Numbered from the stretch's first letter, positions 532 through 49,051 are shown. The stretch: 64,000 nucleotides of DNA from an uncultured Pseudomonadota bacterium (GCA_963541275.1 CAUTSC010000001.1:73879-137878), one strand, 5' to 3'. The notes: a model not told the origin generated them from the letters alone. Program-made: numbers and translations.

Positions 532-1587
532 TTAAAATGAACGTTCACAACTAGCTGCTATTTCTGCAAGCTTTTTAGCTTTATTCAAAACCGCACCACT
601 TACAGCAGTAGTTGTAAGTGAAGTTCCAGCTGTGATTCCAGCCATAATATTGGATGTTAAATCAAGCTTCTTTCTTTTATTTTCTTCTGCTCTAATAGCA
701 TTTGAAACAGCAACAGGATCTGTTCCTTGATAGTGTGTCGGCATATCAGTATTTGCAATTGCAGAAGTCGCAGTCCCAGTAATCGCAGTTGCAGTTCCAA
801 TCCCGGAAATCACCGCAGATGCAGTCATACTATTTTTAATAGTATTTATATCTGTCATATCAAAACCCTTACACGAAGAAATTATATACATAGATCTTTC
901 TATATCTTCTCTCCACATAGATTTCGCTTCTTCTTTCTTATTATTATAATCCACAAGTGCTTTTACTTTATTGTTAATTGAACGAAGTTCACCAAGAACA
1001 GCATTACATTGTTTCATTTTTTCTGCTACCTGTCCCGCATTTACACTTGCAGCAGCACTTGTTCCAACAGAAACTCCCGATGTAGCAGCAGAGGCAGCCA
1101 TCAATCCAGTTCTCACATGACCCAAAGTTTTTTTTGACTTTTCTCCAACTCCATCTTTATTTTTCATAACTCCAACAGCTAATGCCGAAGCTGCAGTTCC
1201 TACTCCAGCAGAACTTACAAAAGTTGTTGCCATGTTTAAATTAAAAATAGTGTTAAGATTGCTTGCAATACCACCACATACAGCTTGTACACCCCCTATT
1301 TTTGTTTTTAAATCTGCAACTGCAAGATGCAATTCTTTAAGTTCTTTTTTATCTTCTTGTGTTTGTTGTCTTACACCAAAATTTGGATCTAATTGCATAG
1401 GAGCAGAAGTATTAACAACAGAACCATCAACTACTTTTGTATCAAGAGAGTTAGATACAGAATTTTCTCTAACCGCTCCATCTGCTGCACTCCTTCTTCT
1501 TCCATTTATTTTTGCATCTACCAGATTTGGCATAAAAAACGAAGCAATTAACATACTTATAACTATTTTACTAACCTTATTTTTCAT
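532..1587 (-). CDS. Hypothetical secreted protein, Ala/Thr/Gly/Ser-rich with a coiled-coil segment.
   Basis: Signal peptide MKNKVSKIVISMLIASFFMPNLVDA. Low-complexity repeats TATAITGTATSAIA and AGITAGTSLTTTAVSGAV. RBS AAGGAGAAAAAA precedes the ATG. It lies downstream of virB3/virB4 in the same orientation. Confidence 0.5.
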   Translation of the reverse strand: MKNKVSKIVISMLIASFFMPNLVDAKINGRRRSAADGAVRENSVSNSLDTKVVDGSVVNTSAPMQLDPNFGVRQQTQEDKKELKELHLAVADLKTKIGGVQAVCGGIASNLNTIFNLNMATTFVSSAGVGTAASALAVGVMKNKDGVGEKSKKTLGHVRTGLMAASAATSGVSVGTSAAASVNAGQVAEKMKQCNAVLGELRSINNKVKALVDYNNKKEEAKSMWREDIERSMYIISSCKGFDMTDINTIKNSMTASAVISGIGTATAITGTATSAIANTDMPTHYQGTDPVAVSNAIRAEENKRKKLDLTSNIMAGITAGTSLTTTAVSGAVLNKAKKLAEIAASCERSF

Positions 1588-1838
1588 ATTTTTTCTCCTT
1601 TTTTTTTAAAGTTAATATACCACCAAAACAAAGGCGGTTGGAGGTTGATTACTATGATAAGAATAGTGCGGTGTATTCAGCAAAAAGCCTTATTTCACCA
1701 GCCCACCAACCATAAAAGGTCGTAGGGCATTTTATGTCCGCGCGGACACTTATCAAAGGTAATCACACCTTAATATTGCACACACAATATCCATTTTATT
1801 TTACACTAAAATACAAGTTGAATCAAGTTATTAAACAA

Positions 1839-7597: not shown

Positions 7598-7800
7598 ATC
7601 ATCCTCCTTTTCGATAGGAAGCTGAAAACTATCAATGAATGTAAATAGTGTATAGTATTGGGTATTCCTACACCTTCCTACCTTGCAGTAGGATACATTA
7701 CAAAAACATCACCAAAAATGATGCTCACTCATTGAGGGCTTTCAGACCCTTTTATTACCGATACTAAAATAAAAAAAATTCTTATACAAGAAAAATATAT
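7598..7800 (-). promoter_or_regulatory. Conserved structured 5' leader plus promoter-like box of cassette A (copies at 22113..22320 and 36022..36245).
   Basis: All three copies carry, on the minus strand, CTTGTATAA(R)(R)A, then hairpin CCTAC-TGCAAG-GTAGG, then AGGAAGGT, then AATACTATAC(A/G)CTATTT, then (A)ACTTCCTATC (a 7-nt complement of TAGGAAG) just before the RBS. Confidence 0.5.
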
Positions 7801-22112: not shown

Positions 22113-22320
22113 ATAGTCTCTCCCTGTTTTGATAGGAAGTTAGCAACTATCAATGAATGCAAATAGTGTATAGTATTGGGTATTTCTATACCTTCCTACC
22201 TTGCAGTAGGATAACCCACAAAACACCATTAAAAAAAATGATGCTCACTCATTGAGGGTTGTCACACCCTGTCATTTGTTTTCATAATAAAATTAAAATT
22301 TTCTTTATACAAGTGAAAAA
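22113..22320 (-). promoter_or_regulatory. Conserved structured leader plus promoter-like box, cassette B.
   Basis: Same ordered motifs as 7598..7800; CTTGTATAAAGA at 22303-22314 (minus strand). Confidence 0.5.
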
Positions 22321-36021: not shown

Positions 36022-36245
36022 CTCATCTCCCTTTTTTTATGATAGGAAGTTAGCGACTATGTTAAACAAAATAGCGTATAGTATTCTTAGATCTATTCCT
36101 ATACCTTCCTACCTTTCAGTAGGAATCCACTCCTTTAATTCATGCTCTTACAAGCACATAGTTTAACAAGGGTCGCTAAACCCATTCATTTATTTTCATG
36201 ATAATATCAAAAAGATTTTTATACAAGCGAAAAAAAATTGGAAAA
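36022..36245 (-). promoter_or_regulatory. Conserved structured leader plus promoter-like box, cassette C (the most diverged copy).
   Basis: CTTGTATAAAAA at 36216-36227. CCTACTGAAAGGTAGGAAGGTATAGGAATA...AATACTATACGCTATTTT...GCTAACTTCCTATCA retained despite divergence elsewhere. Confidence 0.5.
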
Positions 36246-48121: not shown

Positions 48122-49051
48122 ATGGAAACAAAAGTTTCAGTTGCAATCATAGGTTCTGGTCCTGCCGGTTATACCGCTGCGATTTATTCGGCAAGGGCAG
48201 GGCGAAATCCACTTATTATAACAGGAGTGGATTTTGGAGGGCAAATTGTAAAAAGTTTTGATCTTGAAAATTATCCTGGATTCACAGAAAAAATAGATGG
48301 TGTTTATTTAACCGAACAAATGAGACAGCAAGCCGAAATTTTCGGGACAAAAATTATGACTGACTCGGTGAAATCTGTTGATTTTAAAACAAAACCTTTC
48401 AAACTTAATCTTGAAAGCGGAGATACAATAATCGCAGATTCTGTGATAATTGCAACCGGTGCTCGTGTAAAAAAATTGGGTCTTGAAAATGAAGATAAAT
48501 TTACAAGTCGTGGACTTTCATATTGCGCAACCTGTGATGGATTTTTCTTTAAAAATAAAGAAGTTTTTTTAATAGGTGGTGGCAATTCTGCAGTGTACGA
48601 GGCTTTACATCTTTCAACCCTATGCAAACAGGTAAATGTAGTTCACAGACGTGATTATTTTACCGCAGAAAAAATAATGCAAAATCATTTATTTAATACA
48701 CCAAATATTTCTGTATTATGGAACAATGAAGTTGTTGAATTTACAGGTGATGATAAATTAACAGGTTTAAAGTTAAAAAATACTATCACAGGAGAAATCA
48801 CAGAATATAAAACAGACGGAGTTTTCATTGCGGTTGGTAATACCCCTGCAACTGATATATTCAAAGGACAAGTTGATTTAACTGATTCTGGTTATATAAA
48901 AACAATACCTGATAGTACAGCAACAAATATTGATGGGGTTTTCGCCGCTGGTGATGTAAAAAATCCAAAATTTAAACAAGTGGTGGTGGCTGCCTCTGAC
49001 GGAGCAAAAGCTGCAATGGAGGTTGAAAGTTATCTTCTCTCTCTTGAATAA
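48122..49051 (+). CDS. trxB: Thioredoxin reductase.
   Basis: GSGPAGYTAAIY FAD motif; redox-active CATCDG; GGGNSA NADPH motif. Confidence 0.9.
   Translation: METKVSVAIIGSGPAGYTAAIYSARAGRNPLIITGVDFGGQIVKSFDLENYPGFTEKIDGVYLTEQMRQQAEIFGTKIMTDSVKSVDFKTKPFKLNLESGDTIIADSVIIATGARVKKLGLENEDKFTSRGLSYCATCDGFFFKNKEVFLIGGGNSAVYEALHLSTLCKQVNVVHRRDYFTAEKIMQNHLFNTPNISVLWNNEVVEFTGDDKLTGLKLKNTITGEITEYKTDGVFIAVGNTPATDIFKGQVDLTDSGYIKTIPDSTATNIDGVFAAGDVKNPKFKQVVVAASDGAKAAMEVESYLLSLE

Follow-up and report, generated by a model that had tools for sequence, protein, structure and literature searches.

A conserved two-part RNA leader of Cys-rich protein genes in an uncultured Pseudomonadota bacterium and its probable kinship with the C4 and sRNA-Xcc1 RNAs

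Phages and integrons place small antisense RNAs, such as P1 C4 and sRNA-Xcc1, before risky genes. Here we analyzed a stretch of 64,000 nucleotides (nt) (64 kb) from an uncultured Pseudomonadota bacterium (GCA_963541275.1, CAUTSC010000001.1:73879-137878), hereafter the window, in which three paralogous genes for cysteine-rich (Cys-rich) proteins are each preceded by a conserved leader (copies A, B, and C); all coordinates are whole-window positions. We are confident that the sequence before the three genes is a structured RNA element of the sense strand that is under selection. The 3' half of the leader is probably a diverged relative of the C4/sRNA-Xcc1-type module accompanied by complementary boxes in cis. 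The best overall explanation, which we favor on balance, is a leader built of two halves, a C4/sRNA-Xcc1 module and its cis boxes, that would toggle between two states.

The original prediction had placed the element at 7598-7800, which covers copy A correctly, and had described blocks kept in the same order in three cassettes. All of these blocks are present on the minus strand ahead of the three paralogs, and the remainder of the window lacks them. The box CTTGTATAA is exact in all three copies, the block AATACTATACRCTATTT has three exact occurrences, and a 21-mer, CCTACTGCAAGGTAGGAAGGT, which comprises the predicted hairpin and AGGAAGGT, was found three times at one mismatch or fewer against zero expected by chance. 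The block before the ribosome-binding site (RBS) reads ACTTCCTATC in B and C and GCTTCCTATC in A. Similarity between the copies begins at the CTTGTATAA box, and none was seen upstream of it. A leader profile search of the 64 kb returned exactly three full copies; a structure model search added one diverged copy of the leader 3' half, W4 (Table 1).

The comparison set consisted of 11 distinct leaders, the three of the window and eight from ENA metagenome contigs (L001, L003, L005, and L009-L013). The proteins behind the further leaders are down to 38% identical to that of copy A, and the leaders still keep the blocks. Over the 55 leader pairs, mean identity was 54% for the proteins, 91% for the invariant RNA blocks, and 51% for the variable, covarying stems. 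The set of 11 makes the argument for selection much stronger than three copies could make it: the blocks are kept before proteins only 38-50% identical, which bears out the earlier proposal of selection on a cis-acting RNA element rather than recent duplication. Folding the leaders and looking for compensatory changes in more homologs had been suggested as a check, and the variable stems do keep their pairing through such changes. Two scans of genome contigs for more copies, one with a protein pattern and one with a DNA pattern, gave no matches; a DNA pattern scan of metagenomes gave three chance matches only (L006-L008), and a two-block scan of viral sequences gave one further chance match (L054).

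The original prediction regarded CTTGTATAA as a -10-like box, and this part has to be corrected. Every one of the 11 leaders has a TAnnAT hexamer (TAGTAT, TATTAT, TATCAT, or TACTAT) downstream of TTGYAT at a spacing of 17 nt, or 16 nt in L009, so that CTTGTATAA contains the -35 element instead. The arrangement fits the alphaproteobacterial sigma-70 consensus CTTGAC-N17-CTATAT, with which the leading C of CTTGTATAA also agrees (PMC2873474). A simple sigma-70 scan makes no promoter call at leaders A, B, and C because the -35 element agrees with TTGACA at only three of six positions. We infer a sigma-70-type promoter for the Cys-rich genes (-35 CTTGTAT, -10 TAnnAT), with a transcription start placed by the conserved boxes.

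Single-sequence folds of most leaders gave a long outer helix in two parts, together with a variable hairpin H2 and the hairpins H3 and H4 (fold I). In copy A, the outer helix is made by box a1, CUGAAAGC, with a', GUUUUCAG (7629-7622), in eight pairs, and by box b1, UCAAUGAGUG, with b', CAUUCAUUGA; b1:b' amounts to 8-10 pairs. All four strands vary between copies yet remain complementary, a1/a' being UUAGCGAC/GUCGCUAA in C, UCAGAAC/GUUCUGA in L010, and UUAACAAC/GUUGUUAA in L011. In a register-checked alignment of the 11 leaders, 94.8% of the cells were paired in fold I, compared with 34-52% when the partners were slid, and double changes were present in 21 of 41 pairs; the observed values were reached by 0 of 500 shuffles. 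Compensatory changes were found in every one of the ten b1:b' pairs (96% of cells paired) and a1:a' covaried in five of eight, with double changes in 15 of the 18 pairs of the two helices together. The a1:a' helix was also recovered by unedited MAFFT plus RNAalifold and by single-sequence folds. H2 occurs with four stem sequences at the same place (CAUCA/UGAUG, GUGCU/AGCAU, GAGUU/AACUC, and UGUUA/UAACA) and was found independently in single-sequence folds. Hairpin H1, which holds a1, varies in its loop but not in its GGG and CC. Folding z-scores for copies A to C were -5.2, -3.1, and -4.4 on the sense strand versus -1.8, -2.9, and -4.1 on the antisense strand, and G.U pairs numbered 38 versus 10 A.C pairs. 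The earlier account of a selected, folded leader RNA is upheld by these results, but it had missed the strongest signal, the long-range pairing of the a1 and b1 boxes with the module.

Leader type hardly follows protein similarity (r ~0.2), so leaders and coding regions recombine. Copies A and C have proteins 82% identical and variable stems 26% identical, and in L012 an L005-type a1 is joined to an L001-type a', which leaves its a1:a' helix with mismatches. The mixture in L012 and the A/C mosaic indicate recombination within leaders.

The second fold concerns the 3' half. TAGGAAG and CTTCCTA, described in the original prediction as complementary, are so, and their pairing extends to 9 base pairs (bp), GGUAGGAAG:CUUCCUAUC, with one G.U. 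The long-range helix next to the RBS that was proposed from them is the closing stem of the module in fold II. When isolated, the 3' half of each of the three leaders folds into this stem plus two hairpins, a and b, forming a three-way junction. Within the family the closing stem is invariant but for two G.U-compatible changes; across 14 modules, with the fourth window copy and the phage copies added, it was 99.2% paired and six of its nine pairs had double changes (variants GUUGGGGGG:CCCCCCAAC, GACCGACGG:CCGUUGGUC, and GGUUGGUGG:CCUCCAACC). The module fold had 98% of cells paired on the leader alignment, and the copy A module scored 87 bits with structure model R1. The nucleotides that are invariant but unpaired in fold I (GGG, CC, CUAUU, and AUAG) are paired in fold II, in H1 and hairpin b. 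The predicted hairpin CCTAC/GTAGG (H3) is present but cannot form together with the long-range helix: H3 and the closing stem are mutually exclusive because both use GUAGGA. H3 has one-sided G.U changes only within the family, and matching anti-stems of other sequence were found in the fourth copy (CGACC-UUUUAU-GGUUG) and in the phage copy L014a described below (UUACC...GGUAG). On the modeled folds H3 is a predicted anti-stem that holds the 5' strand of the closing stem. W4 scored 36.1 bits with R1 (E 3e-6) and folds as a three-way junction; its 5' flank UUUUAUGG is as in the C4 consensus, its alignment to RF01695 is weak (12.5 bits), and its hairpin-b loop has a complement upstream, the box UGAUAAG. 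W4 may be a free-standing small RNA (sRNA).

Some further structures were tried and rejected. A helix P0 (AGGG:UCCU) extending helix P1 was predicted by an RNAalifold run, but both observed variants break the pairing. An H-type pseudoknot of the hairpin-a loop with UAUUU would have zero-length linkers, which is sterically implausible, and its sequence is invariant. No small upstream open reading frame (ORF) is conserved in the leader.

The module was connected to Rfam families through phage sequences. Scanning of viral contigs found L014, a P2-like prophage contig, whose region 1634-1706 (L014a) matches the leader 3' half (E 2e-7) and carries the leaders' own stem sequence. L014a aligns end-to-end with RF02221 (sRNA-Xcc1) at 29.9 bits (E 8e-4), below the gathering score of 53 bits; the gathering score of RF01695 (C4) is 45 bits. 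Its neighbor at L014 503-586 (L014b) scored 69.7 bits with RF02221, above gathering, and 18.6 bits with RF01695. R1 gave 62.9 bits to L014a, on which it was trained, and 20.9 bits to L014b (E 0.017); it matched L014b, a further phage copy (L056, 711-795), and P1 c4 weakly and at the right places. The relation of the leaders to RF02221 is transitive only, from leaders to L014a and from L014a to RF02221 at the E values above, together with the R1 score of L014b. BLAST of L014a against GenBank phages gave no match. A view that took the four-way junction for the single fold and disfavored the predicted long-range helix was reversed by the Rfam match of L014 and the wider covariation.

L014 380-2570 and L056 600-900 come from one prophage (viral contig IMGVR_UViG_2515154147_000005), in which an antirepressor- or KilA-N-like gene follows each of three sRNA-Xcc1-type modules. 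Two of the three have boxes matching junction and loop both upstream and over the ribosome site. The same hairpin-with-box form as H1/a1 was found at L014 414-421.

In the P1 record (NC_005856) the order is promoter P1c4, 'putative a1' (48255-48261), 'putative b1' (48269-48276), C4 RNA (48343-48419), a2, b2, and icd (48470). The a2 and b2 boxes are annotated for 'repression of icd ant translation', and C4 as a discrete 77-nt RNA inside the c4-icd-ant transcript. In the P1 sequence, the second hairpin of C4 bears b' (CACUAAC) in its loop, and a' (CUGUCAA) occupies the junction that precedes the closing stem's 3' strand. C4 (phages P1/P7, RF01695, immI) shares with the leaders the order on the transcript (sigma-70 promoter, a1, b1, ~65 nt in P1, and a ~75-nt module), the long-range closing stem around two hairpins, and the placement of b' and a'. 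As read from the sequence, a1 of P1 stands between a G-G and a C-C that could close a small hairpin like H1, and a 5' flank of UUAU followed by GG is common to C4, W4, and the phage relatives. L014a and L014b carry a2/b2 over the ribosome site like P1, whereas the window leaders do not. The leaders also differ from C4 in preceding genes for Cys-rich secreted proteins and not icd/ant, in having a closing stem of 9 bp versus ~17 bp, and in lacking a CCA-like or U-rich tail.

With sRNA-Xcc1 the plan is identical: the closing stem has 9 bp, AAUA(C) motifs occur in the loop of hairpin a, hairpin b comes next, and the 6-nt junction is U-rich and ends in AG. The closing stem corresponds to the helix of the original prediction, hairpin a to H4, hairpin b to RCUAUU...RAUAGU with b' in its loop, and the junction to the core of a'. 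Members of sRNA-Xcc1 likewise stand directly upstream of a gene (symE, ORF6N, or KilA-N/Ant) in several copies per genome; they lie directly before symE in integron cassettes and upstream of an ORF6N gene in APSE phages, and in Xylella tandem copies are found beside C4 and IsrK. The literature consulted on sRNA-Xcc1, the original 2011 description apart, presents a trans-acting sRNA with a mechanism not established and does not mention a1, b1, a2, or b2 boxes. The leaders differ in having lost the inner stem of hairpin a, in the lack of a CCC-UUUU tail, in being AT-rich, and in their location in the 5' untranslated regions (UTRs) of a chromosomal paralogous family with no obvious mobile element, unlike the integron-, phage-, and island-borne sRNA-Xcc1. 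Given scores that fail the family criteria, the missing a2/b2 targets, and the lack of a free 3' end, we did not file the leaders as RF02221 or RF01695 members. We class them instead as a probable variant of the C4/sRNA-Xcc1 kind that is built into the mRNA of an ordinary chromosomal gene family.

A possible way for such a leader to work is as follows. The 5' UTR of each Cys-rich gene, ~150-190 nt, would consist of two halves, the 3' half being a ~70-nt module and the 5' half carrying a1 in the H1 loop and then b1. The leader would toggle between two states. In state I, a1:a' and b1:b' would be paired, H3 would sequester the closing stem's 5' strand, and CUUCCU, thus released, would mask the Shine-Dalgarno (SD) sequence and keep translation off; in state II, the module would be closed, with CUUCCU buried in its stem and the ribosome site open. 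Titration of the boxes or of the module loops would flip the state in a copy-specific manner. Candidate triggers are a matching RNA made by a different copy, processing, and a protein. CUUCCU (7621-7616 in copy A), in the 3' strand of the closing stem, is complementary to the SD sequence (AGGAGG or GGGAG). Minimum-energy single-sequence folds pair the two in most leaders, and alternatives with an open SD cost 1-3 kcal/mol. That the leader switches translation in this way is a tentative model drawn from predicted folds, and we hold it with less than even confidence. The original prediction had listed an attenuator, a thermosensor, or an sRNA-binding platform; a cis element was correct, but the list was too vague, no terminator follows the element, and the invariant core argues against a plain thermometer.

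Several observations weigh against the switch or against the assignment to the C4/sRNA-Xcc1 kind. Forcing the closing stem (state II) costs 2-15 kcal/mol relative to state I in full-length folds. CUUCCU is invariant, which puts its pairing with the SD beyond a covariation test, and this pairing is absent in the phage relatives, where stem or SD sequences differ. The predicted SD accessibility of 19 other window genes spans the same range, so that the leaders are not singled out. For H2 and part of b1:b' the alignment was fitted to the structure manually, a procedure that favors structure. Leader A had no RF02221 or RF01695 match at E<=10 in 401-nt and 93-nt searches, and the window had none at the gathering threshold; the homology therefore rests on one bridging sequence and the shared architecture. 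No a2/b2 boxes were found at the ribosome sites of the window leaders, and the only two-box sites for a'/b' in the 64 kb are their own a1/b1, so that the documented C4 mechanism is not simply transferable. In copies with a UUUUCAG junction, no more than a 5-6-nt remnant, GAAAA, is left before the SD. An optional extra hairpin, AUCGCUAA-AUGA-UUAGUGAU, was observed between CUUCCUAUC and the SD in L001, L005, L010, and L012 and not in the window copies.

The module could instead be a separate sRNA gene, released by termination or by RNase P/E processing and acting in trans, with the linkage to the gene reflecting a shared promoter only. We consider this rather unlikely; it and the cis-acting two-half leader can both hold. 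sRNA-Xcc1 was found as a discrete ~88-nt RNA with mapped ends (PMC2996969) and C4 is annotated as a discrete RNA, a U-rich tail follows the stem of the fourth window copy, and copies A and B have the same b', which makes cross-talk possible. However, the covariation is with the cis boxes, and the 64 kb contain no two-box target beyond each copy's own a1/b1. In addition, neither a terminator nor a U-run follows the stem in leaders A, B, and C, and the SD comes after only 4-40 nt that contain no second promoter, so transcription of the gene has to pass through the module.

A ligand-sensing riboswitch, in which the four-way junction (P1, H2, H3, and H4) would bind a small molecule and control an SD-sequestering hairpin, appears very unlikely. 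Covarying stems surround a highly conserved core, CUUCCU can mask the SD, and the two states are near-isoenergetic, all of which a riboswitch would explain. The invariant nucleotides, however, are mostly in stems and are accounted for by the C4/sRNA-Xcc1-like fold, and variation is greatest in the two complementary box pairs, as is usual for antisense recognition but not for a ligand pocket. No common metabolite theme unites the genes that follow (secreted Cys-rich proteins, antirepressors, and KilA-N), and no Rfam riboswitch match was obtained.

We regard an RNA thermometer or a passive stabilizing leader, which would only mask the SD or protect the 5' end with no specific partner, as highly improbable. 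ROSE thermometers occur in alphaproteobacteria, the group to which the apparently host-associated organism seems to belong, and the leader is a 5' UTR of several hairpins, one of which is weak, includes G.U pairs, and can mask the SD. ROSE elements and SD-sequestering translational riboswitches resemble it in the structured 5' UTR, in a last element able to pair with the SD, and in two competing folds. Neither ~60 invariant nucleotides nor two box pairs co-evolving copy by copy are needed for a thermometer, though; there is no ROSE match in Rfam, the core is explained by the antisense-module fold, the variable parts are complementary box pairs, and the module is common to phage loci with a different downstream layout. 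A leader bound by CsrA/RsmA, which would be expected to expose GGA motifs in hairpin loops with one of them at the SD, was rejected, as the conserved GGA motifs (UAGGAAGG and UAGGAAUA) are inside stems in both supported folds. The absence of any RNA function, with recent duplication, gene conversion, or a DNA-level site (recombination or cassette boundary) behind the conservation, is scarcely credible: the window proteins are 85-88% identical, the leader types and coding sequences are mosaic, and sRNA-Xcc1 copies travel in integron cassettes, but this explanation is largely refuted by covariation, ~95% of pairs being kept by compensatory changes at 51% stem identity, the G.U excess and better sense-strand folding favor RNA over DNA, and conservation persists at 38-50% protein identity.

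If the leaders are what we propose, a chromosomal family of secreted proteins encoded in multiple copies carries an RNA device of the phage-immunity type (C4/sRNA-Xcc1) in its 5' UTRs, in an uncultured low-GC alphaproteobacterium in which present Rfam models miss it. A concrete mechanism can also be offered for sRNA-Xcc1: at the phage locus, boxes lying over the ribosome site and start codon of the following gene match its exposed junction and loop, an arrangement also found in P1 C4. The a1 and b1 boxes, 'putative' in the P1 annotation, are under the clearest co-evolutionary constraint here, which suggests that cis pairing is central to this RNA class. The extended unit (promoter, H1 with a1, b1, anti-stem, and module) could yield a better covariance model for genome annotation. 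As a conjecture that we think improbable, the a/b box pairs would be copy-specific address codes similar to the P1/P7 immunity specificities, each cassette having its own lock (a1/b1) and key (a'/b'). If so, RNAs of one copy, or free modules like the fourth copy, could switch particular other copies on or off, so that members of a secreted-protein family would be expressed in concert or to the exclusion of each other in an alphaproteobacterium associated with a host. By extension, sRNA-Xcc1 RNAs as a family would be C4-like cis/trans antisense regulators of the downstream gene (symE, ORF6N, KilA-N, or Ant) and not generic trans sRNAs.

Table 1. Positions of leader features, diverged module, and Cys-rich genes in the window, and of boxes on the prophage contig L014.
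Feature	Position	Strand	Details
CTTGTATAA box, copies A, B, C	7790-7782, 22313-22305, 36227-36219	minus	copy A: TTGTAT 7789-7784 = -35 hexamer
Copy A putative -10 hexamer	7761-7766	minus	TAGTAT; predicted start ~7 nt downstream, ~7754
Copy A hairpin H1	7736-7749	minus	GGGU-CUGAAAG-CCC; box a1 CUGAAAGC (7745-7738) in loop
Copy A box b1	7726-7735	minus	UCAAUGAGUG; pairs with hairpin-b loop b' (7641-7632)
Copy A variable hairpin H2	7707-7723	minus	CAUCA...UGAUG
21-mer CCTACTGCAAGGTAGGAAGGT, copies A, B, C	7692-7672, 22210-22190, 36123-36103	minus	copy C loop = TGAAAG
Copy A hairpin H3	7675-7694	minus	AUCCUAC-UGCAAG-GUAGGAA; includes 5' strand of closing stem
Copy A C4/sRNA-Xcc1-like module	7613-7682	minus	closing stem GGUAGGAAG (7682-7674):CUUCCUAUC (7621-7613)
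Copy A module, hairpin a	7673-7650	minus	
Copy A module, hairpin b	7649-7628	minus	b' in loop
Copy A module, junction	7627-7622	minus	UUUCAG = a' core
Copy A Shine-Dalgarno	7603-7609	minus	AAGGAGG, read from sequence
Copy B leader	22113-22313	minus	-35 box within 22313-22305; a1 22265-22258; b1 22255-22246; module 22201-22125
Copy C leader	36022-36227	minus	-35 box within 36227-36219; a1 36179-36172; b1 36168-36161; module 36114-36035
Cys-rich gene, copy A	7597-7088	minus	start codon 7597-7595
Cys-rich gene, copy B	22112-21585	minus	
Cys-rich gene, copy C	36021-35494	minus	
Fourth, diverged module W4	1630-1712	minus	closing stem GGUUGGUGG:CCUCCAACC; hairpin b stem ACUAU/AUAGU as in leaders; U-rich tail
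W4 surroundings			between ORF 2474-1839 and ORF 1587-532, downstream of virB4; ~40 nt upstream of ORF 1587-532
L014a boxes (contig L014)	a1 1539-1547, b1 1552-1557, a2 1724-1731, b2 1737-1742		a1 and b1 upstream; a2 CUGAAAAA and b2 UACACU over SD and AUG; KilA-N-like gene
L014b boxes (contig L014)	a1 and b1 414-431, a2 600-606, b2 611-618		b2 imperfect; before antirepressor-like gene starting 627

The window has a G+C content of 24-34% and encodes LigA, FtsH, AspRS, RNase J, SecB, and ThyX; on plasmids, the closest relatives of its VirB4 belong to alphaproteobacteria, among them the amoeba symbiont Paracaedimonas. From this gene content and the VirB4 relatives, the organism looks like an uncultured low-GC alphaproteobacterium, and it appears to be host-associated. 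The products of the three paralogous genes have a signal peptide, are Cys-rich with repeated CPxG(Y/F)EL motifs, and are 85-88% identical to each other. Library searches assigned them to no Pfam or NCBIfam family. A collection of 5.8 billion proteins contained 34 relatives, and 1.84 billion cluster representatives gave 54 distant matches, only two of them at E<1e-30; the sequence searches mark the protein as lineage-restricted. One 401-kb NCBI contig carries at least seven paralogs. An AlphaFold model had a predicted local distance difference test (pLDDT) score of 58, too poor for a structure search. The neighbors of the leader genes are housekeeping genes and virB3/virB4, a setting other than the phage immunity operon in which C4, with its RNase P-made 5' end, precedes icd/ant.

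The type IV secretion genes virB3 (5176-4880) and virB4 (4863-2431) lie on the minus strand directly downstream of cassette A, which could head a virB3-virB4 operon or be functionally tied to secretion. Each cassette has a second gene on the minus strand (7068-6319, 21564-21124, and 35472-34798). The first ~36 residues of its product (signal peptide and EFYTCVPKKSWW) are near-identical among cassettes and the rest is 44-47% identical with large indels, a pattern that recalls, by analogy, variable secreted or surface protein families.

A further repeated promoter-like module was seen on the minus strand at ~7879-7815, ~6290-6225, ~34720-34660, and ~34470-34410, and upstream of the leaders in L003, L005, L012, and L013. 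Its layout is CTTGA(A/T)..., ~16-17 nt, a (C/T)ATAT(A/T)-type box, and a short 5' hairpin, (A)GGGGTRA..TATCC/TACCCAAA. The CTTGTATAA promoter follows it closely in copy A and four metagenome loci, where the two may form tandem promoters; elsewhere it heads other units. An sRNA-like unit of ~150 nt begins at this module in the window (~34700-34520, minus strand), L003 (~1140-1290), and L005 (~1310-1500). It ends with two terminator-like hairpins, CCAATATT...AATATTGG and then CCGCAAAC...GTTTGC with an A/T run, and has no Rfam match. Finally, a conserved non-coding block, CATTGTGGTTTTGTTTTT..GCAAAGCTATG.TGAT.GTGA.TTGTGGGTGG...TTAACATTAACAAA, occurs on the minus strand at ~6180-6100 and ~34262-34167 and may be a second leader family inside the cassettes. 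In cassette C it reaches the start of a small ORF (34166-33828, 112 amino acids). The matching block of cassette A overlaps the listed GTG start (6136) of ORF 6136-5735 (133 amino acids), which may therefore start further downstream.

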